Notes under the pieces: generated by a model
Databases searched by the model: none
Told to the model about the DNA's origin: nothing
What the model saw: only the letters and a program-made list of their open reading frames with translations
Part shown: one piece after another, positions 3,843 through 44,555 of the stretch
Position numbering within the stretch: position 1 is the first letter of the stretch
How the letters are laid out: every line of letters starts with the position of its first letter
Source of the DNA: Mobula hypostoma
Lineage: Eukaryota
DNA length: 64,000 bases
NCBI RefSeq assembly: GCF_963921235.1
Contig: NC_086097.1
Span: 144,896,001 to 144,960,000, forward strand
Reading direction: 5' to 3'
Program-made: the position numbers and the translations under genes

Positions 3843-3980
3843 TGAGTCCAGATGAGGGGTGTAGGCTCAAAATGTCAACGATTTACTCTTTTCTATAAAT
3901 GCTGCCTGGCCTGTTGAGTTACACCAGCAATTTGTGTGTGTTGCTTAGATTTCCAGCATCTGCAGGTTTTCTCATGTTTC
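3843..3980 (+). repeat. Penelope-type 3' terminal repeat with decayed hammerhead motif
   Basis: AGTC-CAGATGA-GGGGTGTAGGCTC-AAAATGTC followed by ATGCTGCCTGGCCTGTTGAGTT..CCAGCA..TGTGTGTTGC, homologous to 22512-22604. Confidence 0.7.
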
Positions 3981-4124
3981 AGGGGTGTGAGGAGGCCTGC
4001 AATCAGGAAGTAGGCTGAGGGTAAGGTAAGAGTCCGTGAAGTGTGAAGAGAAGTTGGATCGAAAAGGGGTATTAGCAATTGTGCTACAAGGGTGAACTGA
4101 CAAAAGCACTTTAAATCTGATGAC

Positions 4125-5022
4125 TAGTATGTCTGCTCTTACCCCATCCTCCCGCCACCCTGCTAGGGATAGGGTTCCTCTTGTCCTCACCTACCACCCC
4201 ACCAGGCTCCGTGTCCAGCACATAATTCGCCGAAACTTCCGCCATCTCTATGGGATCTCACCACCAAATGCATCTTTCCCTCCCCCCCCCCACTTTCTGC
4301 TTTCCACAGGGATCACTCCCTACACAACTCCCTTGTCTATTCATCCCTCCCCACTGATCTCCCTCCTGGCCCTTATCCTTGCAAGCGGAGCAAGTGCTAC
4401 ACCTGCCCTACGCCTGCTTCTTCACTACCATTCAGGGCCCCAAACAGTCCTTCTAGGTGAGGCAACACTTCACCTGAGAGTCTGCTGGGGTCACTTACTG
4501 TGTCTGGTGCTCCCAGTGTGGCCTCCTGTATATTAATGAGACCCAACGGAGATTGGAAGATCGCTTCACTGAGCATCTGGTGGATGGAGTACAGAAAAAG
4601 TGGGATCTCCCAGTGGCCACCCATTTTAATTCCACTTTCCATTCCCATTCCGATATATCTAGCCATGGCCCCCTCCACTGTCGTGATGAGGCCACACTTA
4701 GGTTGGAGGAACAACACCTTATATTCCGTTTGTGTAACCTCTAACCTGATGGCATGAACATCGATTTCTCAAACTTCCAGTAATGCCCACCTCCATTACT
4801 CATCTCCTTTTCTCTCTCTCACCTCATCTCACCAATCAACTTCTCAGCTCTTTACTTTATCTCTCCCCCTCCAGGTTTCACGTTTCACTTGGTGGTTCAC
4901 TTTCCCCTCCCCCTACCTTTTAAATCTACTCCTCAGCTTTTTTTCTCCAGTCTTGCTGAAGGGTTTTGGTCCGAAACATCAACTAGCCTGTTGAGTTTCT
5001 CCAGTGTTTTGTGTGTGTTGCA
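4125..5022 (+). mobile_element. Penelope-like element 3' fragment (GIY-YIG endonuclease), frameshifted
   Basis: RVPLVLTYHPT and DLPVATHFNS..HSDIS..EEQHLIFRL are homologous to ORF 21474-22217. Pyrimidine-rich 3' UTR and decayed hammerhead at about 4949-4984. Confidence 0.9.
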
Positions 5023-12628: not shown

Positions 12629-12742
12629 CATACATCAAAGTTGCTGGTGAACGCAGCAGGCCAAGCAGCATCTATAGGAAGAGGCGCAGTCGACGTTTCA
12701 GGCCAAGACCCTTCATCAGGACTAACTGAAGGAACAGTGAGT
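12629..12742 (-). mobile_element. 114-bp Penelope 3'-terminal insertion consisting almost entirely of the hammerhead-bearing repeat
   Basis: Reverse complement differs at only 3 positions from 22493-22604. 9-bp TSD AAGAAACAG (12620-12628 / 12743-12751). Confidence 0.9.
12688..12723 (-). ncRNA. Minimal type-I hammerhead ribozyme (intact core)
   Basis: Minus strand AGTC-CTGATGA-A-GGGT-CTTG-GCCT-GAAA-C-GTC-GACT. Stem I AGTC/GACT, core CUGANGA and GAAA, GUC cleavage triplet, palindromic ACGU stem III. Confidence 0.8.
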
Positions 12743-12774
12743 AAGAAACAGAGAGGGCTTATAATATAGCAAAT

Positions 12775-15714: not shown

Positions 15715-17485
15715 AACTATATAGAGATAACAGGCAGGAGAGACAAAGGGGAGTCAGTGGATGTTTACTTGTGTAACACCCTGGGAAATGTTTCACTGCT
15801 AATGTAATGGTCTTTCTGTAGAAGCAGTGTTTGGGTTATGGTTAGGGATAATGGGTGTTTTGGATGTGAGCCATCCAATGACAGGACGGTGTTTCTGTGC
15901 CGCGTGCCTCACACCAGGGTGGTCGGGGTCTTTTGTTCGGTGGGAGATGAAGAGAGAAGACGCCGGAGCAGAGCCATGATCCGATGAAGGTCAGGGAGAG
16001 ACTGAAGGAGGATCAGCGAAGGGGAAACCGTAAATTCTAGCTTCTGCACATTAGACTGTTTCATTAAAATGGGCCCTTTTTTTTGCTTTTTCTTCACTAA
16101 TCCTTTAGTCAAATTGAGAACTATAAAGCTAAATTGTCTAATTGTATGCGGTGTTCTGTATGTTATTTTGTGGTACTGATTTGTAACAGGGTAACAAATC
16201 ATGCAGCATGCCCACAAACAGAGGGGTTTCGGTGTGAACTCGCATCTCAATCTCACCCGTTTGGCAGGGCCAGAGATTGTCTTCCCTAGACACGTAGCCA
16301 ACAGAACTGGAGGGTTACACTTGAATTATAGAAGGCATTTGATACGGTGCCACACACGAGGCAGCTTAACAAGATAAGGGTCCATGCTATTGCAGGAAAG
16401 ATACTAGCACAGATGAAAGATTTGGCAAAAGCCAAAGAGTTGGAAAAAATGTCCTTTTTTCTGGCTGGCTGCAATGGCTAGTGTTGTTCTATAGGCGGGT
16501 TGGTATTGGGACCACTTCTTTTCACGTTATATATCAATAATTTGGATGGTGAAACTGATGACTTTGTAGCCAAGTTTACAGATGATATGAAGAAAGGTGA
16601 AGGGGCAAGGTGTGTTGAGGAAGCAGGGAGTCTGCAGAAGGATTTCAATAGATTGGGTGAGTGGGAAAGAAGTGGGAGATGCAGTAAGGAAGTGTATGGT
16701 TATGCACTTGGGTAGAAGGAATAATGATACAGACTATTTTATAAATGTGGAGAAAACTAAAAAATTAGAGGTGCAAAGGGACTTGTAATTCCTTGCACAG
16801 GATTTCCTGCAAGTTAACTTGCATGTTGAGTCAGTGATAAGGAAGGCAAGTGCAATGTTAGCATTTATTTTAAGAGTACTAGAATATAAAAGGAAGGATG
16901 TAATGCTTGGGCTTTATAAAACATCGGTCACACCACACTTGGAGTATTATAAGCAGACTTGGGCCCCTTATTTGAGAAAAATGTGCTGGCATTAGAGAGG
17001 GACCAGAGGAGATTGACAAGAATTATTCCAGAAATGAAAGGGTTAATGTACAAAGAGTGCTTGATGCCTCTAGGACTCTACTAACTGGAGTTTAGAAGAA
17101 TGAGAGGGGATCTCCTTGAAACCTATCAAATATTGAAAGGCCTAGATAGAATGAACGTGGAGAAGATGTTGCCACATTCACTTTTGGAGAGTCTAGGCAT
17201 AGCCTCAGAATAGAGGGACGTCCATTTCGAACAGATGAGAAAGAATTTCTTTGGCCAGAAGGTGGTAAATCTGGAATTCATTGTCTCAAATGGCTGTGGA
17301 GGCCAAGTCATTGAGTATATTTAAAATGGAGGTTGATAGGTTCTTAATCAGTCAGGGCATTAGAGGTTACCGAAAGAAGGCAGAATAATGGGGTTGAGAG
17401 AGATAATAAATCAACCATGATGGAAAGGCAGAGCATACTCAATGGGCTGAATGGCCTAATTCTCCTCCTATGTCTTTCTATGGCC
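15715..17485 (+). mobile_element. CR1 LINE RT-3' portion, decayed, interrupted by a solo LTR
   Basis: EITGRRDKGESVDVYL, VLGPLLFTLYINNLD..KFTDD. CR1 tail ATGGCCTAATTCTCCTCCTATGTCT. Confidence 0.85.
15772..16319. mobile_element. Solo LTR (548 bp)
   Basis: Termini TGTAACACCC...GGGTTACA, 4-bp TSD CTTG (15768-15771 / 16320-16323), CR1 RT continuous across it. Confidence 0.82.
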
Positions 17486-18711
17486 TAAAACACTTTTCTT
17501 TGCAATAGGGGAATGGTACTACTGGATGAATGGTTACAGCAATCGTGGATGTGATGTGGGACAATGCTTCAATGGGATGAGGTAGAAAATACGAGTGGAT
17601 GTGCTTTCTGTGCCAAGTGGGAAAACCTCCAGAAACCTTCTACTCCCAATTCATTATGATCTTGCACCTTATTGTCTTCCCAATCTGCAATTCTTCTGTG
17701 GCTGTTACACTTTATTCTGCATTTTCTCGTAGTTTTACATGGTACTACAAACGTTTGTACATCAATGCAATGTTGTAATGAATTGATCTGTATGCACAGA
17801 ATGCAAAACAAACTTTTTACTGTACATCAGTACATGTGACAATAATAAAACAATACAATTACAATTACAGCCATACACTTCTGGAAAGGTGACGATAGTA
17901 AGAACTCTGTAAAGAAGTTAATACCTGCTCTTTGGAAAAGGTTCCTGGATATGGGCTATCTGTTCCTGTGGACCGAAGAAAATGCAAATGAAGTTCTCTC
18001 TTTGAATGTAGAATGTGAGTGATATCCCTAACACAGCAGTGAGCAGTGAACTGCAGTTTTCCGTTGCATCAAATGGAGTTTTTTTTAAACACTTTTGGAT
18101 AGGTACATGAATATGCGAAAATGAAGGTACATGGACATTCTGTAGACAGAAGGGGTTAGTTTTATTAGGACATTTAATTGGTATAGCTCAATATTGTGGG
18201 TCAAAGGACTTGTTCCAAGTTGCACTGTTCTATGTATCTTGGAATGACCCTGAAGCTCGAAAGCTGAAAGTGAAACTGACATGAATCCCAGTGGGCAAAA
18301 CAGTAAAGGCATGTGTGGTTATATTTGAGTTTGCAGGAGATCATAGACCTTACTGAAAACAAAAAATATAGTTTGTATTTTAGAGCATTAAATAGCATAA
18401 TTTCATTATAACAAGGGTTAAACAAAATTTTGATTATTCTATAAGATTTCTTTAACCACTTAAGTTGAAAATCTCAGAGCAATGAAATTTTGCTGTTTAG
18501 ACTTGGGGAATTTTTATGCCAAAAAGAAGTGCAAGAGAGGATGAAAATCCTGCTGCAAAGAGAGCTTTGAACGTTTATGTTAAGATAAGTAGAAATGTGC
18601 CTAAAATCGCTCTTCTCTGAATTAAGTTAATTATCATCAGAGCAATGTCATTTCTTGAAGAGTTGTGTGAGCATATTTTGAAGCCCTAATTTCACTTCAG
18701 AGTCTTTCAAA

Positions 18712-19050
18712 GACTTTTACCACAAGATCTAAGTTGACATTTCAATGTAGTACTGTGACAGTTGTTGCCTTTCGGATGCCGTATTAAACTAAGACCCCTT
18801 CTGCTCTCTCAGTCAGCCATGTCAGGTTCCATAGCCTTATTTCAAACAAGAGAGAATTCTGCATTTTTCCTTCAGCCAATATTACTCAAGCAGATTATCT
18901 GGTCATTATCACAGTGCAGGTTCTGGAACCTTGCTGTGCGCAAATTGGCTGCCACATTTTGGGCATAGTAAAAGTGACTACTCTTCAAAAGTATGCTATT
19001 GGCTGTAAAGTGCTTTGGGACATCCTGAGGTCATGGAAGGTGATACATAA
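18712..19050 (+). mobile_element. DeuSINE (SacSINE1/AmnSINE1-like) body and L2-type tail
   Basis: Recognised motifs GCCTTTCGGATG..TTAAAC..GACCCC, CAGATTATCTGGTCATTATCACA, GCTGTGCGCAAATTGGCTGCC, ATTGGCTGTAAAGTGCTTTGGGACATCC. Minus-strand pieces of the same family at about 38770-38835 and 39495-39580. Confidence 0.75.
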
Positions 19051-20049
19051 TCCAACAAATTTTGAGAGCTGTGCTTATTCCAACATTACATTTTATCTTC
19101 AAGTTAAAACATGTAAACAAAAATTGAAACCAACATAATTCATCCAAACTTCACCATTCTGGTTAAAACAGATTGCATCAGTGGAATGCTAAAGCCTTGT
19201 CACTGCACTCCAGTCATTTGTTTTTCTACCCTATTGGGTATGTGTACTGTCATTTAAATATATTGAGCGAACTGTTCATTGCACCATTTCCCAAAGCCAT
19301 GAGCTCACACCTCAGAACACTTCCTGTGTCGATTATGCAGCTGGCTACATCATTTACAATTTGTGGAATGGATCAATGGCAAAACATAGAAGAAATCCTT
19401 GATGCGGTGTTCCAAACTTGGGCTGTATATGTCTCAAATTTGGAATAAACCTGGCACAAAGCACATGTGCTGTTATATTTCCATCTCGGAGGATTGAAAT
19501 GATTTTATTTCTTCTTGATTACTCCTCAATGTTAACAAACCTATCAAGTTATCTGCTGATTTAATATTTATCTGCTCCTGTTCTCTCTCCATTCTAAAGC
19601 CATCCATCCAGATCCAAGTGCTAGATTTCTAGGAATCTAACAATGAATCTAAATAGCACCCCAGTTGAGCACAGTATTGACTTCAGTATTTTATTTGTAA
19701 ATTTTATCAGCTTTCATACTTTATTTATAGGTGAGTTTGAGTTCCCAGAAACAAAAAAGGGGCATTTTTTACCCCTGAGAACTGGACATAGTTATCAGCA
19801 TGTCTTGATAATGAACAGAGAGTTTAGGTCAGATTAACTTTGCTGAACATTTCTGGCTCAGCTGCCACATCTGACATGGTACATCTGCTCATTCAGATTG
19901 CCATCTATGCATTCTTACTCTGTGAATATTGGCTGCATCCTCTATCGCCCACTACAAAGGTGAATACACAAAGTACTTCTTTACACCTAAAGAATTCTAA
20001 AATAGAATAGAATTAGAATGACAAGATATAAATTCCAGCCAGATAGTTT

Positions 20050-20700
20050 TTGATGTTTATTGGCTGGATCAACAAGATTGATGAGATGGAGTTTGAGAAA
20101 GAGATCAGGAATGTTGTACAGTGGTGGCAGAACAACTTAGCCTTTAATATCAGTGAGAGCAAAGAATTGATCATTCACCTAAAGAAGCAGGGTGGGGTGT
20201 GGGGTAGTAGAAAACACAATATTTTGTCACCAATGGAGCTGCTGTAGAGATTCATGATAGCTTCAAGTTCCTTGGCATCTGTAATTACAGCAACATTTCG
20301 GGATCCCTTTATACTGATGCAGTGATCAAAAAAGCATATTAGTAGACATCTAGGCACCTGAGAAGATTTGGCATTTACACGAGGATTCTCTCAAGTTTCT
20401 ACAGGCGCACTATATTCCATCTAAACCTGTGAAGAGTTGCAAGTACACCATAGTCATCACAGCTCATCAGTTTCTTCAGTCTATCTTCATAATGCATTCA
20501 TTTAGGAAGGCTATTGACATTGTCAAGGGCGTCTGCTACCTTGATATTCCCTTTACCTTCTTCTACCTTATGGGAAAAGATGCAGGAGCTTGAAAGCCTG
20601 TCCAGAATTAAAAACAATTTCTTCCCCACTGCTATCACACTTCTGAACCAATCACCTCTTCCAAATTACCTTCCCCATGGGACTGCCATGTTCTTGTACT
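20050..20700 (+). mobile_element. Old Rex1-like RT C-terminal remnant
   Basis: WWQNNLAFNISESKELII, SFKFLG, RIKNNFFPTAITLLN. Its 3' UTR continues at about 20950-21055 and 22605-22630. Confidence 0.6.
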
Positions 20701-20716
20701 TTTAACTCGGGGAAGT

Positions 20717-20945
20717 GGGTGCACAGTAGCATAGTGGCTCACATAACACTATTACAGCCACAGCAACCTGCGTTCCATTCCCAACACTATCCGTAAAGAG
20801 TTTGTACAAGCTTCCCATGGCCGCATGGGTTTCCTCCAGACACTTCAGTTTTCTCACACATCCCAAACACTTGCAGGTTAGTAGGTTGATTGGTCGCATG
20901 GGCCGGAAAAGCCTGGTATCAAGCTGTATCTCTAAATAGATTAAA
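20717..20945 (+). mobile_element. tRNA-derived V-SINE (HE1-like)
   Basis: Box A TAGCATAGTGG, box B-like GTTCCATTCC, V-domain GAGTTTGTAC..TGGGTTTCCTCC..CACATCCCAAA, tail GCTGTATCTCTAAATA. Related copies at about 32725-32910 (+), 40665-40754 plus 51906-52100 (-), and 53160-53445 (-). Confidence 0.7.
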
Positions 20946-21055
20946 TAAACTCTACCTCACTCGGTTATTATGTTGCTGTCATTGTGGTATTTTTTATGCA
21001 CTACTTCAGAGAGCACCATTCTGCTTTGGCACTCATTATTTATTGTTATCATGTA

Positions 21056-21409
21056 TATAGAAACATAGAAACATAGAAAATAGGTGCAGGAGTAGGCCAT
21101 TTGGCCCTTCGAACCTGCACCACCATTCAGTATGATCATGGCTGATCATCCAACTCAGAACCCTATAGCTGCCTTCTCTCCATACCCCCTGATCCCTTTA
21201 GCCACAAGGGCCATATCTAACTCCCTCTTAAATATAGCCAATGAACTGGCCTCAACTGTTTCCTGTGGCAGAGAATTCCACAGATTCACCGCTCTCTGTG
21301 TGAAGGAGTTTTTCCTCATCTCTGTCCTAAAAGGATTCCCCTTTATCCTTAAACTGTGACCCCTCGTTCTGGACTTCCCCAACATCGGGAACAATCTTCC
21401 TGCATCTAG
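21056..21409 (-). mobile_element. Young CR1 3'-end fragment
   Basis: (ACATAGAA)n tail on the plus strand. LDAGRLFPMLGKSRTRGHSLRIKG..VNLWNSLPQ. Nearly identical to copies at 28236, 33811 and 63691. Confidence 0.92.
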
Positions 21410-21413
21410 GAAT

Positions 21414-22217
21414 TTCCTCCGTCTCCGCCGCATCTGCTCTCAGGATGAGGCTTTTCATTCTAGGACGAGGGAGATGTCTTCATTTTTTAAAGAAAGGGGC
21501 TTCCCTTCCTCCACTATCAACTCTGCTCTTAATCGCATCTCCTCCATTTCACGTACATCTGCTCTCACTCCATCCTCCCACCACCCCACTAGGAATAGGG
21601 TTCCCCTGGTCCTCACCTACCACCCCACCAGCCTCCGGGTCCAACATATTATTCTCCGTAACTTCCGCCACCTCCAACGGGATCCCACCACTAAGCACAT
21701 CTTTCCCTCCCCCACTCTCTCTGCATTCCGCAGGGATCGCTCCCTACACAACTCCCTTGTCCATTCGTCCCCCCCATCCCTCCCCACTGATCTCCCTCCT
21801 GGCACTTATCCGTGTAAGCGGAACAAGTGCTACACATGCCCTTACACTTCCTCCCTTACCACCATTCAGGGCCCCAAACAGTCCTTCCAGGTGAGGCATC
21901 ACTTCACCTGTGAGTCGACTGGGGTGATATACTGCGTCCGGTGCTCCCGATGTGGCCTTTTATATATTGGTGAGACCCGACGCAGACTGGGAGACCGCTT
22001 TGCTGAACATCTACGCTCTGTCCGCCAGAGAAAGCAGGATCTCCCAGTGGCCACACATTTTAATTCCACATCCCATTCCCATTCTGACATGTCTATCCAC
22101 GGCCTCCTCTACTGTAAAGATGAAGCCACACTCAGGTTGGAGGAACAACACCTTATATTCCGTCTGGGTAGCCTCCAACCTGATGGCATGAACATTGACT
22201 TCTCTAACTTCCGCTAG
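21414..22217 (+). CDS. C-terminal part of Penelope ORF: RT thumb, Cys-rich linker and GIY-YIG endonuclease (5'-truncated TE ORF)
   Basis: Stop-free from FLRLRRICSQ (21414) through ORF 21474-22217. Linker CKRNKCYTC, nuclease VIYCVRCSRCGLLYIGETRRRLGDRFAEH and EEQHLIFRLG..PDGMN. Confidence 0.85.
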   Translation, partial: FLRLRRICSQDEAFHSRTREMSSFFKERGFPSSTINSALNRISSISRTSALTPSSHHPTRNRVPLVLTYHPTSLRVQHIILRNFRHLQRDPTTKHIFPSPTLSAFRRDRSLHNSLVHSSPPSLPTDLPPGTYPCKRNKCYTCPYTSSLTTIQGPKQSFQVRHHFTCESTGVIYCVRCSRCGLLYIGETRRRLGDRFAEHLRSVRQRKQDLPVATHFNSTSHSHSDMSIHGLLYCKDEATLRLEEQHLIFRLGSLQPDGMNIDFSNFR

Positions 22218-22511
22218 GCCCCACCTCCCCCTCGTACCCCAGCTGTTACTCATTTTTATGCACACATTCTTTCTCTCACTCTCCTTTTTCTCCCTCTGTC
22301 CCTCTGAATATACCTCTTGCCCATCCTCTGGGTCACCCCCCCCCCCGTCTTTCTCCCTAGGCCTCCTGTCCCATGATCCTCTCGTATCCCCTTTTGCCTA
22401 TCACCTGTCCAGCTCTCGGCTCTATCCCTCCCCCTCCTGTCTTCTCCTATCATTTTGGATCTCCCCCTCCCCCTCCAGCTTTCAAATCCCTTACTCACTC
22501 TTCCTTCAGTT

Positions 22512-22547
22512 AGTCCTGACGAAGGGTCTCGGCCTGAAACGTCGACT
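22512..22547 (+). ncRNA. Minimal type-I hammerhead ribozyme (intact core), predicted cleavage after C22543
   Basis: AGTC-CTGACGA-A-GGGT-CTCG-GCCT-GAAA-C-GTC-GACT. Confidence 0.8.
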
Positions 22548-22710
22548 GCGCCTCTTCCTATAGATGCTGCTTGGCCTGCTGCGTTCACCAGCAACTTTGA
22601 TGTAAGACGCTAATAAACTAATGTAATCTAACACTTCCTTCTGAATTTTATTGATTTCGTATACTTCTTCAAATTCAAGATTGTTGTCATTTAACCATAT
22701 ACATGTATAC

Positions 22711-23017
22711 CATCACGTGGCCAAGTGGTTAAGGCATTGGACTAGCAATCTGAAGGTCATGAGTTCGAGCCCCAGCCGAGGCAGCGTGTTGTGTCCTTGA
22801 GCAAGGCACTTAACCACACATTGCTCTGTGACGACACTACTGCCAAGATGTATCGGCCTTTGCCCTTCCCTTGGACAACATCAGTCTCGTGGAGAGGGGA
22901 GACTTGCAGCATGGGCAACTGCTGGTCTTCCATACAACCTAGCCCAGGCCCGCACCCGGGAGAGTGAAGACGTTCCAGATGCAGATCCATGGTCTCGCAA
23001 GACTAACGGATGCCTTA
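22711..23017 (+). mobile_element. tRNA-derived SINE with CORE-like domain
   Basis: Box A TGGCCAAGTGG (22718), box B GTTCGAGCC (22763), CORE-like CCTTGAGCAAGGCACTTAACC. TSD GTATAC (22705-22710 / 23018-23023) inside a minus-strand Rex1-like 3' fragment (about 22670-23375). Confidence 0.85.
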
Positions 23018-23477
23018 GTATACTGCTAAACAGAACAACGTTCCTCCGGACCAAAGTGCAGCGCACAGTAGATATAACTCACACACAAAACTTAAAGTAA
23101 TATTACTACAAGCAAATTAACAAATAATAAGGTTCATGAGTACAGCACTACGGGCACTTTATTCATATGTGATGAGACCTGGACGTGGCAGGGTGTTCAG
23201 TAGTCTCACAGCCTGGGGGAAGAAGCTGTTTCCCATCCTAACAGTTCTTGTTTTAATACTGCAATACCTCCTCCCTGAAGGTGGGGGGCCAAAGAGATTG
23301 GTGGACAGATGGGAGGGATGCTAAATGCGTTGCACACACAGCGCTCCCAATAAATATCTCAGACGGGTGAAAGAGAGACCTGTCCTCATTGGGGGATTAG
23401 AAGTGGAGCAAGTCAGCAGTTTTAAATTCCTCAGCATTATTATTTCAGAGGACCTGTCCTGGGCCCATTATATAAGG

Positions 23478-23863
23478 TGCCACGGTCCCGATCGTTAATT
23501 CCTTACCTTTCTCCTAATTTCCTTTGATTGTGCCACAGTTCTGACTGTTAATTTCCCATTTGCTTTTAATTCTGTTTGATGACAGCACACCTGGTTTCCA
23601 TCAAGACCTGCAGCATAAGAACCCTGGTGCTACAACCACTACAGATCGTTGGTTTTGTCTGTGTGGTGATCAACATTTCCTGGCCGCTTTGAACCGTGTG
23701 TTCTAAGTTTTGCTCCAGTTTCAGGGTTACCTATGAAACCCTGTCTCTCCATGTCAAGGTCCCTCCTGTTTGCCATGCAACTTTCACGTCTGTGTAAGCA
23801 TCCTAATTCAATCTCCGTGCCAGTGTCCTGCACTTGGGTTCACTTCAGTCGTTCATTGCAACA
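23478..23863 (+). repeat. 5' LTR of sushi-like Gypsy
   Basis: TGCCACGGTCCCGATCGTTAATT...GTTCATTGCAACA, collinear with the 3' LTR. Confidence 0.9.
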
Positions 23864-23879
23864 GAACAATCTGGCCACA

Positions 23880-24903
23880 ATGGACCCAGCGGACACGAGA
23901 ACCCTGCAACAAGCCCTCACAAGCCTGGTCTCCCTACAGCGTCTGCACAATCAACTTCTCTGGGATGTCATGGAGAACCTCCGTTCCCAGTCCGCTAACG
24001 TATCAAAGATCGGTGACCAAGTGGACCGTGTATCCACTCATCTTACCCCATCCACTCCTGGAACTCAGTCTAACCAGCCCAGACAGCCTGTACTGGCAAT
24101 CCCCTACGTGCCAGCAACACCCCCGACAAGAGAGCTGCACGTACCTGAACCAGAACATTATGCTGGGGATTTGGGGAAGTGCCGGGCCTTCCTACTGCAA
24201 TGCTCCTTGGTATTTGACCAGCAGTCATCCACGTACTCCACAGATAAGTCAAAGATAGCTTCTATCATGGGGTTGTTGCGGGGAAGTGCCTTAGCGTGGG
24301 CTACAGCTGACTGGGATAATCAACCAGATATCTGCTCTTCTTTCCCCAACTTTATCGCAGAAATGAAAAAGATCTTTGGCCACCCCGTCCATGGTAAAGA
24401 TGTCGCTAAGCGTCTACTCACTCTCCGTCAGGGCTACGCAGTGTTGCCGAATATTCCGTGGAGTTCCGGACTCGGGGTGGAACGATGAGGCACTCCAAGG
24501 GGTATTTCGGAACGCTCTCAGTGACAGGGTGAAAGACGAGTTGGCAGCAAGAGATGACACCAACAGCCTGGATTCCTTAATCTCCCTAGTCACCAGGTTG
24601 GACAATCATCTCCGAGAGCGCCATAGGAAAAGAACTAGTCGTCCACCACCTTTGGCCACTTCACGGCACTCATTACCGTCTCCCACCAGCACAAGCCTCT
24701 CTTCTCCTCCTGTTCCTAGAATAACTCCCAGCCTGGCCGTTTCCACCACCCTGGGAGAGGAACCCATGCAGCTGGGAAGGACCCATCTCTCTCCTACAGA
24801 GCAACTCTGGAGCTTCAGAGCAGGCGAGTGTCTCTATTGCGGCCAGTCTAGCCACTTCTGTGCTACCTGCCTCCTTCAGCCAAAAGGGAAGACTCACCAG
24901 TAG
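23880..24903 (+). pseudogene. gag: gag (capsid + CCHC knuckle), frameshifted near 24430-24470
   Basis: MDPAD.., [67 protein letters not shown]. Confidence 0.88.
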
Positions 24904-27900
24904 AAAGGGGGATCCTGGTGAGCCAGACAACATTCCCTTATGTCCCAGATGCAGATCCAAGCTACACTACATTACAACCAACAGTCCCACCCTGTCAGCT
25001 CTAGTGGACTCCGGTTCTGAGGGAAACCTTCTGGATGAAAACATAGCTTCCCGGGCCGGACTTCCTCCGGAGCCATTGAGTACCCCTCTGGAAACCCAGG
25101 CACTGGACGGCAGACTCCTGGCCAGAGTCACACACTGCACACCACCTCCATCTCTTATTCTCTCCGGGAACCATCGAGAGCAGGTACAATTTAACCTAAT
25201 TTCCTCTCCTCAAGCTCCTATAGTTCTTGGGTACCCCTGGTTAAGCCGCCATAATCCCCACGTTGACTGGTCCACCGGGAAGATAGTCAGCTGGAGTCCG
25301 TTCTGTCACTCCACGTGTCTACAGTCGTCCCTGTCCCCTGTGAAAGTCACCGCGACCTCGTCTGCCTCAGAAACCCCCCGACTTATCCAAGGTTCCAACA
25401 GAGTATCACGACCTGGGACAAGTGTTTAGTAAGCAACGGACCCTTTCCCTGCCTCCATACCAACCTTACGATTGTGCTATTGTACTTCTCTCCAGAACCC
25501 CTCTACCCACTAGTCGGCTGTATAACTTGTCCTGGCCAGAAAGGGAAGCAAGGGAGGCTTGCCTAAATGAATCTCTCGCAGCGGGTATTATCCGACCCTC
25601 ATCCTCCCCTGTAGGTGCAGGTTTCTTCTTTGTGGGGAAGAAAGACGGCTCACTGCACCCCTGCATTGACTACCGGGGCCTGAATAGCATCACCATAAAG
25701 AATAAGTATCCACTGCCCCTTATCAACTCTGCTTTAATACCCCTTCGTGGAGCCACAATCTTCTCTAAGTTGGACCTACTAAGTGCCTACCAGCTGGCCA
25801 GGATAAGGGAGGGAGATGAGTGGAAAACAGTTTTTAACACCGCTCTTGGTCACTTCAAATACCTGGTCATGTCATTCGGTCTCACCAATGCCCCCACCGT
25901 CTTCCAAGCCCTGGTAAACAATGTCCTTAGGGACTTTATTAACTGTTTCATTTCTGTTCATTTGGACGACATCTTAATCTTCTCCCGCAGTCTTCAGGAA
26001 CACACCCACCATGTCCGTCAGGTTCTGCAAAGGCTTTGGGAGAACAAACTATTCATTAAAGCTGAGAAGTGCGAGTTTCATGTCCTTCTGTCAGCTTCTT
26101 AGGGTACATCATCGAGAGCGGGCAAGTGAGGGCGGATCCCGAAAAGATCCGAGCAGTGGCGGAGTGGCCAAAACCTACGACACTCAAGCAACCCCAGTGA
26201 TTTTAGGGGTTCACAAACTTCTATCATCGCTTCATCAGGGATTACAACCGGGTGGCAGCTCCCCATACTCAACTCACCTCTCCTGCGACCCCTTTTCACT
26301 GGGACCCCAAAGTGGACTCAGCCTTCTCGGAGCTGAAGAGGCATTCCACCTCCGCTCCCATCCTGGTCCAACCTGACCCCACCTGTCAATTCATTGTGGA
26401 GGTCGATGCCTCTGGGTGGGAGTGGTCCTCTCCCAACGCTCCTGCCCAGACCAAAAACTCCATCCCCGCGCCTTCTTTTCTCGTCATCTTCCCCCGCCGA
26501 ACGGAACTACGACGTTGGGAACCGGGAGTTACTGGCTGTCAAACTCACCTTGGAGGAGTGGAGGCACTGGCTGGAGGGAGCTGATGTCCATTCATCGTCT
26601 GGACCGGTCTCAAGAATCTCGCATAGACTCAAACCACCAAATGCCTGAATTCCCACCAAGCCTGTTGGGCATTATTTTTTGGCCGTTTCAGATTCACACT
26701 TACCTATCGTCTGGGGTCCAAGAAAGGGAAGCCCGATGCTTTCTCCCATCAATACATCTCCGAGGGAGGCCTTTCCAACCCCGATACCATCCTGTGTAGT
26801 GGCTGCCCTCACCTGGGAGATGGAATCCATAGTCAAAGAGGCCCAACGGACTCAACCTGACCCAGGCAATGGACCCCCCAGTTGCCTCTTCGTGCCTGAC
26901 TCGGTTCAGTCTCAGGTTCTCCAGTGGGGGCATACTTCTTGTTTCGCCTCCATCCTGGAATCGATCTAACTCTGCCCCTTCTGAAGAGACATTTCTGGTG
27001 GCCCTCCATGGATACTGACACTCGCTCCTTCGTCTCTGCTAGTTCTGTTTGTGCCCGCGGAAAAGCCTCCCACCAACAACCTGCTGGGTTGCTTCATCCC
27101 CTACCTGTCCCTAGCCGCCCCTGGTCTCACATTGCGCTGGATTTCGATACAGGACTACACCCTTCGCTTGGGAACACTGCCCTACTCACCGTGGTGGACT
27201 TGCTTCTCCAAAGCTGTGCATTTTGTAGCCCTTCCCAAACTCCCTACAGTCTGTGAGACAGCCAACCTCCTTGTTCATCACATCTTCCGCCTTCGTGGTA
27301 TCCCCTCTGACATCATTTCTGACTGGGGCACCCAATTCATCTCTCAAGTCTGGAGATCCTTTTGTCAAGCCTTTGGAGCCTCCGTAAACCTGTCTTCCAG
27401 CTTCCATCCGCAGACTAATGGTCAAACAGAATGAGCAAACCAGGATTTGGAAGCAGCACTGCGCTGCATAACTGCCAACAACCCGTCATCCTGGAGCACC
27501 CATCTTGTTTGGGTCAAATACGCCCACAACTCCCTGGTCAGCACTGCCTCCGCAATGTTCCCCTTCAAATGCTCCCTCAGTTATCAACCCCCTCTGTTTC
27601 CTGCCCACGAAGATGACATCGTTGTGCCTTCTGTTCAGGCCTATCTCTGCTGGTGCCACAAGATCCGGAAGGATGCACGCATGGCCCTGCTCCGCTCAGC
27701 CAACCGCAACCAGAGGATTCCCAATCACCATCGAATTCCTGCACTAAATTATCGGCCCGGGCAGAAGGTTTGGCTCTCGTCAAAAGACACCCCCCTCGAG
27801 AATGAACGAAGAAACTCATCCCTCACTACCTGGGACCATTCGAGATTGAGAGTATTATCAACACCTCGGCGGTCAGACTCAAACTGCCCAGATCCATGCA

Positions 27901-28201
27901 CATTCATCCCACGTCCCACGTCTCCCAATTGAAGCCCTTTTCTGTCAGCCCTTTGTGCCCTCCTGCCAAACCCCCTTCACCCACCCGGATCATTGACGAA
28001 CACCCAGCATACACCGTCCAGCAAATACTGGGTGTGCACAGCCGAGGCAGAGGCCTCCAGTACCTGGTCAATTGGGAGGGATATGGCCCGGAGGAACGCT
28101 CCAGGATTCCTCGCTCTTTCATCCTGGACCCTTCCCTCCTCCGTGATTTCCATCGAGACAATCCAGAAAAACCTGGTGGTCCGCCTCAAGGCTTCTGTTG
28201 A
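24860..28201 (+). pseudogene. pol: pol (protease, RT, RNase H, integrase, chromodomain) with multiple frameshifts
   Basis: [107 protein letters not shown]. Confidence 0.92.
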
Positions 28202-28212
28202 GGGGGGGTTAT

Positions 28213-29107
28213 TGTCACGGTCCCGATCGTTAATTAGAAACATAGAAACATAGAAAATAGGTGCAGGAGTAGGCCATTCGGCCCTTCGAGCCTGCACCGC
28301 CATTCAGTATGATCATGGCTGATCATCCAACTCAGAACCCTGTACCAGCCTTCCCTCCATACCCCCTGATCCCTTTAGCCACAAGGGCCATATCTAACTC
28401 CCTCTTAAATATAGCCAATGAACTGGCCTCAATTGTTTCCTGTGGCAGAGAATTCCACAGATTCACCACTCTCTGTGTGAAGAAGTTTTTCCTCATCTCT
28501 GTCCTAAAAGGCTTCCCCTTTATCCTTAAACTGTGACCCCTTGTTCTAGACTTCCCCAACATCAGGAACAATCTTCCTGCATCTAACCTGTCCAATTCTT
28601 TTAGGATTTTATAAGTTTCAATAATATCCCCCCTCAATCTTCTAAATTCCAGCGAGTATAAGCCTAGTCGATCCAGTCTTTCATCATATGAAAGTCCTGC
28701 CATCCCAGGAATCAATCTGGTGTACCTTCCCTATCTTTCTCCCAATTTCCTTTGACTGTGCCACGGTTCTGACCGTTAATTTCCCATTTGCTTTTAATTC
28801 TCTTTGATGACAGCACACCCGGTTTCCATCAGGACCTGCAGCATAAGAACCCTGGCGTTACAACCACTAGTCGCCAGATCGTTGGTTTTGTCTGTGTGGT
28901 GATTAACGTTTCCCGGCCGCTTAGGACCGTGTGTTCTAAGTTTTGCTCAGTTTCAAGGTTTACCTATGAGACTGCGTCTCTGTGTCAAGGCTCCGTGTCC
29001 AGATCCCTACTGTTTGCTGCTCAACGTTCACGTCTGCGTAAGCATCCTAACTCAATCTCCGTGCCTGTGTCCTGCTCTTGGGTTCACTTCATTCGCTCAT
29101 TGCCACA
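28213..29107 (+). repeat. 3' LTR of sushi-like Gypsy, split by a CR1 fragment
   Basis: TGTCACGGTCCCGATCGTTAATT | CR1 | CCCTATCTTTCTCCC...CATTGCCACA. Confidence 0.9.
28236..28728 (-). mobile_element. Young CR1 3'-end fragment
   Basis: ORF 28332-28715 IPGMAGLSYDERLDRLGLYSLEFRRLRGD..; (ACATAGAA)n tail. Confidence 0.92.
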
Positions 29108-29544
29108 TAAGGGCAATTACAAGCAAAGCACAACAGTGCGTCTACTTCCTTAGGAGTTGGCGAAGATTCGGTATGACATCTAAAACTTCGACAAACTTCT
29201 GGAGATGTGTGGTGGAGAGTATATTGACTGGTTGCATCACAGCCTGGTATGGAAATGCCAATACTCTTGAATAGAAAATCCTACAAAATGCAATGAATAT
29301 GGCCCTTCCATCATGGGTAAACCCCTTAGCCCCATCCCCCATTGAGCACATCCACATGAAACTTTGTTGCAGGAAAGCAGCATCCATCATTAGGGATGCC
29401 CACCTCCCTGGATATGCTCTCTTCTCAAGGTACTGGAGCCTCAGGTCCCTCACCAGTAAGAACAGTTACAACCATTTAACCATCAGGCTCTTGAACCGGG
29501 GAGGATAACTTCACTCAATGTCACTCACCCCATCATTGAAATTT

Positions 29545-33619: not shown

Positions 33620-33795
33620 GAGCAACACACACAAACTGCTGAAAGAACTCAGCAGGTCAGGCAACATCTATGGAGAGGAATAAACGGTTAACAGTTTGGA
33701 TTGTGATTCTTCATACAGATTTGCCTGACCAGCTGAGTTCCTCCAGCATTCTGTGTATGTGCCTCTGGATTTCCAGCATTTGCAGAATCTCTAGT
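33620..33795. repeat. Palindromic (inverted) Penelope terminal-repeat unit, decayed
   Basis: CACACAAACTGCTGAAAGAACTCAGCAGGTCAGGCAA ... TTGCCTGACCAGCTGAGTTCCTCCAGCATTCTGTGT. Confidence 0.75.
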
Positions 33796-36250: not shown

Positions 36251-37575
36251 GTGTTCCCTTTCTGACTCTTGTCAGAGCCATGAACTGAGGCATTAGAGAG
36301 TGTCCAGAGGAGGTTCTCAAGAATCATCCCAGGTATATTGGGAGGTTGTTAGGTTCTCAGTGAGTAAGAGTGGCAAAGGTAACAAAGAGAAGGCAAGAGA
36401 ATGGGGCTGAGAGGGTAGACAGGATAGACATCAGCAACAAGCAGACTCAGTGTTTCCATCGAATGTTAATGGAACTTGATACAGAAAATGGTTTAAAACT
36501 GGGGAAAAGATCTGGTAAATATGGATCCAAGATCTTCTATTATAAAACAAAAAAAAATGAAGGAAACAACAGATTGGCAGCACCTGTGGAGAGAGAAATA
36601 GAGTTGGACATGACATGTTAGAGTTGGTGTTCAACAGAATTAAGAATGGTTAGAGTGAGCAAAATTTTGAACATTATATCTTTATTACAATTAAAATATA
36701 ACAGATTAACATTTTCTCAAACCATACGGAACTTACAAAAATTGACTTACTCATCTTTGTCAATTTTACTGTGACTAACTAGAATGTGAACAACCATTCT
36801 GTTGTTGAATGTATTGTGAGATAGGCCAATTTAAAGAAATGCTATCTAGATTACCTCCCGCAATCATAATAGTTACAAGAAAGTACAACAATATAGCTGG
36901 AGAATAACAGCAATAATTCTTTATCAATTAGTGTAATTGATAACAAATGACATCAGTTGATAACAATCTTCCAAAACATGAGGAAAAGAAACTGCCAGAG
37001 GAGAGTTTTGAAAATCATGGGTTTAAAGACACCTGTTCCTTCATAATAATTTCCATCAAATGTCTTGAGTAATCTATTTCAAAACGATATCCAAAGTATT
37101 TATACAAAAATAGTCCTCCCTCAGGAAAAAGGAATTTCATCTCATAGACATGTCAGCAGATTTCAACAATATCCATCATCAGTACATTGCAATATCTCAA
37201 CTTTTATAGAGTCTGTTGCTTATATGTTCCTGCTTCTGGGGTCCTATTTGCTAGTGGAATGTGGCATACAAAAGAACGGTGCTGATTTTAGCTGGTGTTC
37301 ATAAGTGTTTCAGTGTGATTATGCCAGCTTGCTGTTCAATGCCTTTGTGCAGTACTTTTTTCATCATGGATACTCCAAAGGTTAAACTGAAAACTTTACA
37401 GGATAAAGTTTCCTGAATGTATTTAGTCTTCTCCAAATATTACGAGTTGGCTATTGCCAATTCATCAAGAACTTTTTTACATTTTTTTAAGTCTGTAGTG
37501 ACTGTTTACAACATGTGACTTACTCCGCCGGCTTAGGTGTGAGTAAAAGGACATCAAAGTAGAAAGGACCAGAAA

Positions 37576-37800
37576 CAAAGCAATACACACAAAATGCTGG
37601 AGGAACTCAGCAGGCCAGGCAGCTTTTATGGAAAAGAGTAAACAGTCGACGGTTTGGGCCGAGACCCTTCATCAGGACTCATGAAGGCTCTCAGCCCAAA
37701 AAGTTGACTGTTTAGTCTTTTCCATAGATGCTACCTAGCCTGCTGAGTTCCTCCAGCATTTTGTGTGTATTGCTTTGATTTCCAGCATCTGCAGCTCTTC
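37576..37800. repeat. Inverted repeat (about 100-bp arms) of the Penelope terminal repeat with two opposed decayed hammerheads
   Basis: CAAAGCAATACACACAAAATGCTGGAGGAACTCAGCAGG ... CCTGCTGAGTTCCTCCAGCATTTTGTGTGTATTGCTTTG, centre CCTTCATCAGGACTCATGAAGG. Confidence 0.88.
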
Positions 37801-38034
37801 TTGTAAGAGTCACATCTAGCCTACATCAAATAGGGAATGATACTTTTCCTTCCTTGAATAACATTGTGAACTTGTAGGAATTTATAATGATGCAAACGCT
37901 TTCCATTGTCAGTCCTTAAATGACACAGAAATGAACATTTTATACTGACAATAATTGAGGCAGGAATCCTGGTCAGACCACAACAACACTTAATTGAATA
38001 GCTCCATAGAACTTATAAGTATCCTTTTGCATTA

Positions 38035-38645: not shown

Positions 38646-41154
38646 AGTCACTTTTACCTTGGTTTGGCAATGAGCAGTGATACCCATTTGTAAGGGATGG
38701 CATCTTTAAGCTGGACAGACAGACAAAGCTGCTGTCCAATGCTTTCTTCTAAAGGCTGTGTCCTCTGCTCAACAATGCAGCACACTCCCTCAGTTCTATA
38801 CTAGTGTGGCCACCAAGGTGATGTTCTCCGGACTAAGAATGAAATATGAAAAGAGCAAAGAGTTTCAGTTTAGTTTTAAAAGGAGGCCATATGGAGCTGG
38901 TTACTGTGTGCTAAAGCAAGTGCTTCACTCTGAAAGGCCCCTCCTGGGATTCCTTAGTTGAGTCATTGTTTTGCATATATTTTTGCTTTTTCTTTCTGAA
39001 GACTGTCCAAAGATTTCCCTAGTCGTGTTAAATTATGCAACATTGGAAATAAGATTCTGGTCTCTCAAGTTTGAGCATCAGACAATGAAAATACAGCATT
39101 CTGAGATTATGGAATTAATTATTCTTAATCACTTGTAATTTGAGTTTAATTGGCTCATGTTTCAGAGACGAATCAAAATTGATGGAAAAAGCGTGTCCAA
39201 CATGGTTGGCCTTTGGAGTATTTATTTTCCATTAGCTCACTCCCAGTGTTTGATTATTTATCACTATCATTTGATGGCTGATGGGGCCACCCTATTATAC
39301 TGAGGCCATGGAGGCACTTACCTCTGTTTGGGGAAAAGAAAAGCAATATCAGTTTGAAACTGAACTGACAATCAGCATTGGGTCCCTGATTGAACTTCGC
39401 CTGGAATCTGAATCTGGGTCCAACCTTTATCAAATTATTTTTCCAAGAGGGAAAGGAAAGAAATGAGAAGCTCTTACATCTGGATTGCTCTTGAGGAAAA
39501 GAAACACTTTTCATTTAATAGCACCCTTTAAGGTTTCAGGATGTCCAAAATACACAATAGCTAATTAAGTATTTTAGAAGACGTTTAACTATAAGAGACT
39601 ATGGATGCTGGAATTTGGAGCAACACATAAAAAATGCTGAAGGCACTCAGCAGGTCAGGCAGTATTTATGGCGAGAAATAGACAATCAACATTTCTGGTC
39701 AAGACCTTTCATCTGGACAGTGAGGTGGGGCAATGATCTATGTGATAGTCTGAATAAAAAATCAGGATACGTGTCCAGAACTGTCCAGAGCTAACAATCT
39801 CCAGCAGCACCATCTTGGATTGTGCTTCATACTTACACATTGGATTCTGATGACTGGGTTTTGTCAGAGGCAAAACATGAAATGGATTGCTTCCCATGTC
39901 AAATGCATGATACAAAGCACAAAATGGACTGTACACACGTCACGTGTTTGCAGTACAACAGGGAGAAAAATATGAAGTCTAAAAGATGAAGTAATTGACA
40001 ACTATATCTCAGATGGATGATATGGAAACAGCACTTATCTAATGAGCACAAAGACATCATTTACCCCCTTGGTAAACAAAAATTAAAAATTCCTGCAGAT
40101 GCTGGAAATCTGAAATTGTAATCAGAAAATGTTGGAAACACTCGGAGGTCAGGCAGCAGTTGTGGAATGAGAACCAGACTTAGTGTCTCATGGAGTTCTG
40201 TCAAAGCTTCACATGTCTGAAAAATTAAATCTGTCTCTCTTCCCTCACACACTTCTTGATCTTTAAAACAGAGATGAAGTGGAATTTCTTTACCACAAAG
40301 GTAGTTAATCTATTCATTGCCAAAGATTGCTGTGGAGGCCAAGTCACTGGATATGTTTAAAGCAGAGGTTGATAGGTTCTTAGTTAGTAATGGCAGTAAA
40401 GGTTACTGGGAGAAGACAGGATAATGGCATTGAGAGAGAAAATAAAGCAGCCATGATCAAATAGTGGAGTAAATTTGATTGGCCAAATGGCTTAATTCTG
40501 CTCCTACATCCTATAGTCTTACAGACCTGGCTAGTGTTTCTAGTCATTTTCTATAAATTTCTATTATCTCTTCAGATGGCTCCATGTCAGATGTTATTTG
40601 ATAATATTCCCATGAAGCAACTTGTGAAGTAGTAAGTGCAGTATGTAAATAATGTTGTTTGTGTTATCTATTTACTGATGGTGTGGAGAAGGCTCTCCCA
40701 GCCCTTCGAGCCAAGCTGCTCCACTACTCCTTGACAAACCTAATTAACTCTAACTGTAATGTATAGATCTATTTCTTTTAGAGCAATTTCATCCCCCACC
40801 CCCAGCACTACATACTGATCTATTGTCTGCACATGTGCTGTTGTCTATGCATGTGCATTGCTCTCTCTCTCTCTCTCGCTGCAATGTTAATACTCCAGTT
40901 AAAGCAATCTCCCGCGTGTGTGCTTTTATTTAATACAGTATATATGTAGTTATGCACAGATACCACAAATTGATGGTGAGTACGAAACTAAATGTCAGAA
41001 AATATCACACACTACATCGACATTTCTGGCACGATTACGGGACGAAACAGTAAGAGTTAAACAGTATAGAGAAGGCTGTCACAGACACTGAAAAACGCAC
41101 AAGTACAGTGCATAGTAACAGTGAAAGACACCCTAAATTTAAAGTGAGAATAAC

Positions 41155-43542: not shown

Positions 43543-44555
43543 ATGTCTATGTCTACGAGGAGTGGGAAGAACTTGTCTGAATCTAGTGATAAAGGTAATG
43601 GGAAAGGAAAGATGCAAAAGGAAAGATCTGATGAAATGCCACCAAGGGCTGAAGATATGGTTCAGACACTGAATTCAATTAAAGATCAGAATGGGTCAAT
43701 TAAAGACCAACTGGAATGGAATAGTATTGAAATGGTCGGCAGATCAGGCAGCATCCGTGGAAAAGATCGGTCGACATTTCCACGGATGCTGCCCGACCTG
43801 CTGAGTTCCTCCAGCGCGTTGTGAGTGTTGCTTTGACCCCAGCATCTGCAGATTATTTTGTGTTAATGAAATGACGTCATTTCTGGGAAAACTTAAAGAC
43901 CTGGAAACTCAAGATATTACACTCGAAAAGGAATTGAGGATAACCAAGTAAAAATTGTTTGAAGCTACAACTCATTTGGAAAGATATCAAAATAAGATTA
44001 TAGACCTGGAAACCAGGTATCGCCGAAGGAATATACGATTTGTTGGGCTGCAAGAAGGAGCTGAAGATGAAGATTTAACTACTTACTTTGGTAAGCTTTT
44101 TGATACCTTATTTCCTACCATATTATCACAGCCGCCTACTATAGAAAGAGCACACAGAACCTTTACTTCGAAATCTAAAGATCCAAATAAACCAAGATCT
44201 GTTTTGGTTTGTTTTCATCACTTTAAAATTAAGGATCAAATAATGCAACAGGCAAGAAAACAGAGTTTTTAGATTTAAGGAATCTGAGCTCCGTTTTTAT
44301 GAGGATTATCCAAAGGAGGTAATGGAACAAAGATCAAAATTTGCTCTGGTAATGAAACAGGCATATGATAAGAAACTCTTTCCTTCTTTACGTTACCCGA
44401 CAAGAATTAAAGTTTTTACCCAAAAGCTACACTGGAGTTCGTTCGAACTATACCTGCTGCCGCTGCTGAATGAACTGTCCGGGAGATTATTTGGTTATCT
44501 GTATATTATTGGCATTTCAGAAAGATTTATGAAGGTTACTTGGATGTCTCATTGA
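43543..44555 (+). pseudogene. L1 ORF1 (coiled coil + RRM/CTD), disrupted
   Basis: IDLETRYRRRNIRFVGLQEGAE, IERAHR, PRSVLVCFHHFKIKDQIM, FYEDYPKEVMEQR, LRYP. Confidence 0.85.
43735..43866. repeat. Short palindromic Penelope-end insertion in L1 ORF1
   Basis: Hairpin GGCAGCATCCGTGGAAA/TTTCCACGGATGCTGCC. 7-bp TSD TGAAATG (43728-43734 / 43867-43873). Confidence 0.85.

Follow-up and report, generated by a model that had tools for sequence, protein, structure and literature searches.

A minimal type-I hammerhead motif in the pseudo-LTR of a truncated, probably Neptune-like Penelope element

A 5′-truncated element from a very large family

The window (the whole 64-kb stretch of DNA analyzed here) carries on its forward strand a 5′-truncated Penelope-like element, denoted copy A, that consists of the remnant of an open reading frame (ORF) and the pseudo-LTR behind it. 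The features upstream of the hammerhead motif are:

21414..22603, + strand: 5′-truncated Penelope-like element, copy A; reverse transcriptase core absent; family sequence continues beyond both ends
21414..22217, + strand: ORF remnant of 267 codons plus stop, with thumb/linker region, zinc-finger-like linker, and GIY-YIG endonuclease
21813..21839, + strand: C-X4-C-X2-C linker (Neptune/Nematis-type CX2-5CxxC); C142 invariant, C147 and C150 nearly invariant
21921..22145, + strand: GIY-YIG domain with CCHH residues (Pfam PF01541, E 1.2e-4, 22.7 bits against a cut-off of 22.6)
22218..22511, + strand: untranslated part of the pseudo-LTR, pyrimidine-rich (79%)

The CCHH residues of the GIY-YIG domain were invariant (C185, C188, and H207) or nearly so (H223) among 13 aligned proteins. 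Two shark proteins (62 and 56% identity) were the best of 33 longer homologues of the copy A protein, followed by coral, sea urchin, and metagenome RT-EN proteins at 37–50% identity, which points to a shark or ray as the probable host. The reverse transcriptase (RT) missing from the truncated copy was found upstream in the same ORF in the relatives P0018 and P0023. Loose ends of contigs from four runs extend the family sequence before 21414 and past 22603, and copy A is therefore 5′-truncated at 21414. The CX2-5CxxC linker is described for both Neptune and Nematis elements (PMC8557442) and, since Nematis has the same linker, the assignment of copy A as probably Neptune-like is based on the linker together with the vertebrate host. 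Features in common with the Neptune clade, as portrayed in the same paper, include the C-terminal GIY-YIG domain with CCHH, the linker, the RT found upstream in relatives, partial and inverted copies, and a tail (PMC8557442). Scans for the family tail pattern gave no match in viral contigs or in prokaryote genomes, and a protein scan of viral contigs returned one weak locus. Gene models of skate, devil ray, and zebra shark (P0032, P0033, and P0001) contain translated family pieces and are probably annotation artefacts.

The Penelope family of copy A is very large. In contigs of run X1, a possible source of the window DNA, 312,636 records matched the family and 67,147 did so at ≥99% identity, while the summed X1 depth over the motif was approximately 100,000 times that of the flank just after the element, a depth that does not equal copy number. 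Summed contig depth dropped from millions to 78 just after 22603, and other copies carry different letters from 22604 onward. The first-pass annotation had called the element young, which is apt relative to older copies (70–82%) and agrees with the open 267-codon frame, a CpG observed/expected ratio of 0.52 versus 0.31 for the window, and 97% identity to copy B (see below); as an unqualified label it goes too far, copy A being truncated and differing from the family majority at many sites in the contigs. The best target-site duplications around copy A alone or around copy A plus the adjoining LINE were 6 and 5 nt, respectively, and neither is credible.

Other family copies in the window

A 113-nt query identified nine family copies within the 64-kb window. 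In addition to copy A these are:

12629..12745, − strand: copy B, same subfamily as A; 112 of 115 positions identical to A; intact motif at 12688–12723; 9-bp target-site duplication
37573..37804: older copies C (−) and D (+), head to head, both starting within the hammerhead or at its front edge, with decayed cores
4096..5021, + strand: older copy H, endonuclease remnant (82% to A) with a decayed hammerhead at 4949–4984
3845..3972, + strand: older short copy E, begins at stem I
39588..39718, − strand: older short copy F, begins at stem I
33621..33785: older short copy G (−) with inverted arm
43740..43861: older short copy I (+) with inverted arm, turning near the cut site

Copies A and B differ at three positions, two of which are CpG transitions inside the motif. 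Copy B holds the only other intact motif in the window and lies on the opposite strand, 9.8 kb from copy A. Both an optional tail with two 3′ end points and inverted 5′-truncated copies were seen among the window copies; a tandem or partial-tandem copy with two pseudo-LTRs was absent from the 64-kb window. The three head-to-head pairs of short old copies (33621–33785, 37573–37804, and 43740–43861) have their turning points in or near the hammerhead.

Letters and architecture of the hammerhead motif

Positions 22512–22547 (+) read AGTCCTGACGAAGGGTCTCGGCCTGAAACGTCGACT directly in the window sequence, in agreement with the place, the letters, and the cut site after C22543 given by the first-pass annotation. 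It had also put the motif about 300 nt behind the GIY-YIG stop codon, and 294 nt were measured from the stop (22217) to stem I. The parts are listed below with hammerhead position numbers (9, 10.1–11.1, 15.2–16.2, and C17):

22511..22515, + strand: stem I, 5′ strand AGUC; possible fifth pair U-G 22511/22548
22516..22523, + strand: catalytic core CUGACGA (22516–22522) plus an extra A (22523) between positions 9 and 10.1
22524..22535, + strand: stem-loop II GGGU(CUCG)GCCU with pairs G-U (10.1–11.1), G-C, G-C, and U-G and loop CUCG
22536..22543, + strand: GAAA (22536–22539), loopless palindrome ACGU (22539–22542), and C17 (22543); predicted cut after 22543
22544..22548, + strand: stem I, 3′ strand GACU

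The order of a type-I hammerhead (core CUGANGA, then GAAA, then UH, with stems I and II) is present in copy A, as are the GUC triplet ending in C22543 and a palindromic 15.2–16.2 (ACGU, 22539–22542) that lacks loop 3. The register with the extra base (A22523) was the best one in 25 of 25 palindromic descriptor matches in related loci (the best 80 of 531). The description of the motif as intact holds for all core letters, the extra A, and the palindrome, and needs qualifying for stem II, where two of the four pairs are G-U wobbles, the core-proximal pair 10.1–11.1 included.

A type-I minimal descriptor search, which the first-pass annotation had proposed as a check, matched 22512–22547 and the sister motif at 12688–12723 (−) and nothing else in the window, compared to a mean of 0.0 matches in 100 dinucleotide shuffles. 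If 22512–22547 were a chance match to a short descriptor, the silence of Rfam (nine matches at E ≤ 10 in 15000–30000, with no hammerhead family among them) and the ordinary folding energy (z −0.37) would both be expected, and they leave the case for the motif to the core letters and to comparison. Against chance stand the absence of descriptor matches from all 100 window shuffles and the recurrence of the motif on the same strand and at the same place in relatives at 36–50% protein identity. Coincidence is accordingly refuted by the shuffle controls and the motif-model matches in relatives, leaving it a negligible probability, and 22512–22547 is a real minimal type-I hammerhead motif.

Conservation of the motif in distant relatives

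Of 531 confirmed loci from metagenomes, the best 80 by protein alignment (36–50% identity) served as relatives. Within this set, 46 loci had 400 nt of sequence after the endonuclease stop and 13 of them contained a strict sense-strand motif, spread over 8 of 17 sequence clusters and lying 81–151 nt behind the stop; the same 46 loci gave no match on the antisense strand or in the 400 nt preceding the stop, and 200 shuffles averaged 0.0 matches. In an alignment of 12 motifs (copy A and 11 picked as distinct) the core letters were invariant in all 12 and the stems changed in pairs, with changes on both sides of a stem in 23 cells versus 6.2 in shuffles (0 of 500 shuffles reached 23), although this set leans toward structure because the descriptor that picked the 11 motifs demands pairing. 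A model built on the 12 aligned motifs had 65 matches in the best 80 of 531 loci, and scored copy A at 46.1 bits (as a member of the training set), copy B at 45.0, and copy C at 32.9. These comparisons show a motif kept at the same place and on the same strand in distant relatives. Within the family, none of the 40 variants listed out of 210 (38 of the 40 inside the element) fell in the motif and seven fell within 40 nt of it, a blank that chance alone would give with a P of 0.31.

The zebra shark gene model runs through into the same motif and ends in SLMKGLRPKRQLLCS, whose window counterpart is the frame LTKGLGLKRRL across the motif; the proline in SLMKGLRPKRQLLCS would imply a C at position 11.1 there. 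The near full-length relative L006 has a different hammerhead, with a GC palindrome and a longer stem II, at 126 inside a 158-nt inverted repeat (50–207). Its ORF begins shortly downstream of the repeat, at 234, and approximately 285 nt behind the stop lies a decayed motif (2789–2828).

Extension past the predicted cut

The element continues beyond the predicted cleavage site as one further feature:

22544..22603, + strand: 60-nt extension past the predicted cut, to the nearer of two family end points; putative start of reverse transcription

The drop in contig depth places the element end at 22603, 60 nt beyond C22543, as the first-pass annotation had estimated. Aligned against copy D, the 3′ ends of the window copies fell at +64 to +75 (5 of 11 rows, A and B included) and at +89 to approximately +99 (6 of 11), with alignment ends good to a few bases and copy A ending at +60 in its own count. 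In one invertebrate family of 31 copies, 12 ended at +51 to +76, 17 at +104 to +127, and two elsewhere. In both the window family and an invertebrate relative, the 3′ ends beyond the cut thus fall into two clusters, as the internal-initiation model predicts. For the Poseidon element of the anole, reverse transcription was reported to begin at two RNA-internal sites downstream of the ribozyme that coincide with the ends of genomic copies, and the template that predominated in vitro was uncut (unprocessed) RNA (Frangieh 2024, PMC11167929). Ribozyme cleavage of that element took place only with the protein present, and no RNA-seq reads started or ended at the cut (Frangieh 2024, PMC11167929).

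The first-pass annotation had reasoned from the extension that the template was uncut, tandem, or circular RNA, which is the rule already published (Frangieh 2024). The two end clusters support this reasoning. One route is missing from it, a template jump that joins two cut ends seamlessly; this would yield the same DNA, so that tandem, circle, and jump would look alike in DNA.

Relation to known elements

Minimal hammerheads have been reported in fish Xena, Poseidon, and Neptune elements, and their association with Penelope-like elements has been published for fish, coelacanth, frog, and reptiles (Cervera 2014, PMC4209133) and in reviews (PMC6765202, PMC6155905). The annotated class (minimal type-I hammerhead) and context (pseudo-LTR of a Penelope-like element) were borne out by comparison with these motifs. 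Copy A shares with them the short helix I, the additional base separating 9 from 10.1, the palindromic 15.2–16.2 without loop 3, and the location in the pseudo-LTR, along with the mostly solo occurrence in truncated copies and the inverted pairs; copy A differs in having G-U for G10.1–C11.1 and a 4-bp helix II with two wobbles (Cervera 2014, PMC4209133). In the Poseidon element PAc of Anolis carolinensis, too, copies extend past the cut, an optional tail separates two end points, and the ribozyme is copied uncut (Frangieh 2024, PMC11167929). PAc is a Penelope/Poseidon element whose ORF begins at stem II, in contrast to the Neptune-like linker of the window element, and no long ORF starting in the motif was present in the frames read at copy A; initiation in PAc lies at +111–118 of the ORF (85–92 nt past the cut), compared to ends at approximately +60–70 and +100 in the window family (PMC11167929).

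Animal non-LTR retrozymes also carry a type-I hammerhead derived from Penelope pseudo-LTRs and are reported in one chondrichthyan genome (bioRxiv 10.64898/2026.07.22.740005). They are tandem non-coding repeats (bioRxiv 10.64898/2026.07.22.740005), whereas copy A occurs singly and is joined to coding sequence for the endonuclease; a retrozyme identity was ruled out, the window copies being solo or head to head and A carrying coding sequence.

Minimal hammerheads in Penelope pseudo-LTRs and the extension past the cut are already known, and copy A adds a host family. A literature search found no published report of the copy A family or of a shark or ray case, although Repbase, Dfam, and the supplements of Cervera 2014 may hold the motif; work on the G10.1/C11.1 wobble, on start sites, and on template switching likewise contained nothing on the copy A family. 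For a Neptune-like family, the genomic end points confirm the pattern of internal initiation that biochemical work had shown in the anole Poseidon element. The very many copies, together with a natural G-U versus G-C variant at 10.1–11.1, provide material on selection for or against ribozyme strength in Penelope elements and can also be used to ask whether any copy arose from cut RNA.

Pair 10.1–11.1 and predicted folds

The pair 10.1–11.1 is G-U in copies A and B versus G-C in 11 of 11 other aligned motifs and in 61 of 65 model matches (best 80 of 531 loci, related copies that are not independent). G10.1–C11.1 is described as highly conserved, and not absolute, in Penelope minimal hammerheads, among which a Schistosoma motif gave no cleavage as a single motif and low cleavage as a dimer (Cervera 2014, PMC4209133). 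Position 22535 is absent from the 40 of 210 variants listed, all with top shares of ≥48% and ranked by a rule that is not stated, and U at 11.1 may consequently be the majority letter of the family. U11.1 may be a feature of the master element or may reflect CpG decay in both A and B.

ViennaRNA, which models neither the folded hammerhead core nor magnesium, predicted −7.0 kcal/mol for the open junction of the monomer versus −11.0 kcal/mol for an inactive rod in which core GACG pairs with CGUC. For the dimer it gave −11.5 kcal/mol in the active register versus −30.3 kcal/mol for an inactive rod formed through GUCGAC across the cut site. With the G-U at 10.1–11.1, inactive folds predicted to be stabler, and no intact partner on the same strand in the window, the first-pass wording of an intact ribozyme in copy A, competent though only as a dimer, is overstated.

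Interpretation and alternative explanations

The explanation that we favor, and hold to be probable, is that copy A carries the minimal type-I hammerhead of a Neptune-like Penelope pseudo-LTR, passive in a dead 5′-truncated copy that arose by internal initiation on uncut RNA, with near-silent cutting as a monomer and slow cutting as a dimer. As suggested by Penelope work, the pseudo-LTR would be the 5′ leader of the next unit. The element protein would nick DNA and start reverse transcription inside the RNA, approximately 60–70 or 100 nt past the cut, and copying would then pass back across the uncut ribozyme and, if the RNA is a tandem read-through product (or a circle), enter the end of the upstream ORF; in copy A it would have stopped at 21414. 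In a single ribozyme, helix III would fail to close and the core GACG would pair with CGUC, leaving the monomer almost inactive. Cutting would be slow and would require two copies paired through ACGU, probably with the help of the element protein, such that it trims long precursor RNAs and leaves most templates uncut. Since the sole other intact copy in the window lies on the opposite strand, a different transcript would have to supply the pairing partner for the RNA of copy A, whose ribozyme is probably weakened further by the G-U at 10.1–11.1.

The same weak pair invites the rather unlikely alternative that the ribozyme of the copy A subfamily is catalytically dead or vestigial, with the motif kept as a structural or protein-binding signal or merely hitchhiking. 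G-U in both young copies where 61 of 65 model matches in the best 80 of 531 loci have G-C, and U at 22535 as a possible majority letter (40 of 210 variants listed), would be explained; in addition, catalytic mutants left insertion in vitro unchanged (Frangieh 2024, PMC11167929), and Naiad elements thrive without canonical hammerheads, their authors raising the idea of parasitism by the ribozyme (PMC8557442). Loss of cutting may even favor spread on this account, uncut RNA being all that is copied. However, A and B retain all core letters, the extra A, and the palindrome; a G-U can still form a pair, the stem has a possible A-U register, and C-to-T at the 11.1 CpG could be separate decay in both copies. 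The opposite alternative, proposed in Cervera 2014 (PMC4209133), has efficient cutting in vivo followed by circularization of unit-length RNA (or a jump of the enzyme from cut end to cut end), copies such as A deriving from circles and the seamless DNA motif being the ligation junction. It predicts exactly the DNA seen in copy A, and four short invertebrate copies starting at −13 to +8 from the cut, together with window copy I turning near the cut, are in its favor. Nevertheless, we regard it as improbable given that the anole element had unprocessed RNA as its dominant template and no reads starting or ending at the cut (Frangieh 2024, PMC11167929), while the at least six of nine window copies that hold sequence ≥25 nt before the cut are compatible with either model, and a circle leaves no DNA mark, so that nothing in this DNA is specific to circles.

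5′ ends and a candidate start site

The letters just in front of stem I contain a further candidate feature:

22480..22511, + strand: speculative core promoter proposed from its letters, with a TATA-like TTTCAAAT (22480–22487) and an initiator-like TCAGTT (A at 22508)

The same letters can also be read as a 3′ splice acceptor. Window copies C, E, and F have their 5′ ends at stem I, where a TATA-like box approximately 30 nt upstream would place the start site. Among the 78 matches in the invertebrate loci, 48 reach the 5′ end of the query and none starts at −69 to −40, while four start at −37/−38 (three without L060, a cross-family alignment) and five at −13 to +7 (four without L054, which is not a family copy); left out of these 5′-end counts were L054, L060, L076, which extends further with another query, and L025, which lies at a contig edge. 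The short inverted copies at L061 2166 (−), L081 422 and 3072 (−), and L069 4016 (−) start ≤13 nt from the predicted cut. Window copy I and four copies from invertebrates, all beginning approximately 13 nt or less from the cut, may indicate that some templates were cut. In run X1, 484 loose ends piled up before 22512, which fits either copies truncated at stem I or older subfamilies whose upstream part differs.

TATAAA occurs 37–38 nt before the core in the invertebrate family and TTTAAA 34 nt before the core in old window copy H. As a general feature of Penelope families the TATA-like box was rejected by a rotation test across 21 families: with ≤2 mismatches a box approximately 38 nt before the core was found in 10 of 21 families, a count reached by 297 of 1000 rotations, and with ≤1 mismatch in 3 of 21, reached by 418 of 1000, neither being significant. 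Regarding the splice-acceptor reading, the untranslated part is 79% pyrimidine throughout, most relatives lack an AG at that place, and no spliced joint was among the 15 of 1527 contig joints listed. Penelope of D. virilis has a TATA-less internal promoter and an intron ending at helix I (PMC2377424; PMC4209133).

A tentative proposal, which we consider doubtful, is that transcription of the family initiates at the hammerhead's front edge, approximately 30 nt downstream of a promoter, that the solo copies of 100–140 nt are complete run-off cDNAs of the uncut leader, that the rarer copies starting at the cut are records of cleavage in vivo, and that the currently dominant subfamily spread with a weakened G-U ribozyme. 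Thin support comes from three window and three invertebrate copies that start at stem I, with a TATA-like box approximately 30 nt before in both families, and from the four invertebrate copies that start near the cut. If true, the 5′ ends of genomic copies would provide a read-out of cutting frequency per ribozyme variant and would bear on what Penelope hammerheads do.

Neighboring elements

The 3′ end of a young LINE (21058–21409, −) lies head to head with the 5′ end of copy A via four extra letters; it is 94–96% identical to copies at 28235–28585 and 33811–34162, the latter attached to an RT frame, and a target-site duplication was absent around the LINE, around copy A, and around the two together. 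Downstream, a tRNA-derived SINE head is located at 22717–22776 (Rfam tRNA 27.9 bits, below cut-off), and contigs joining the Penelope end at 22603 to 22714 numbered six in X1 and five in X5, the intervening letters not being given. A Ty3/Gypsy LTR retrotransposon occupies approximately 23400–28000 (+), with gag, aspartyl protease, and RT pieces in separate frames.
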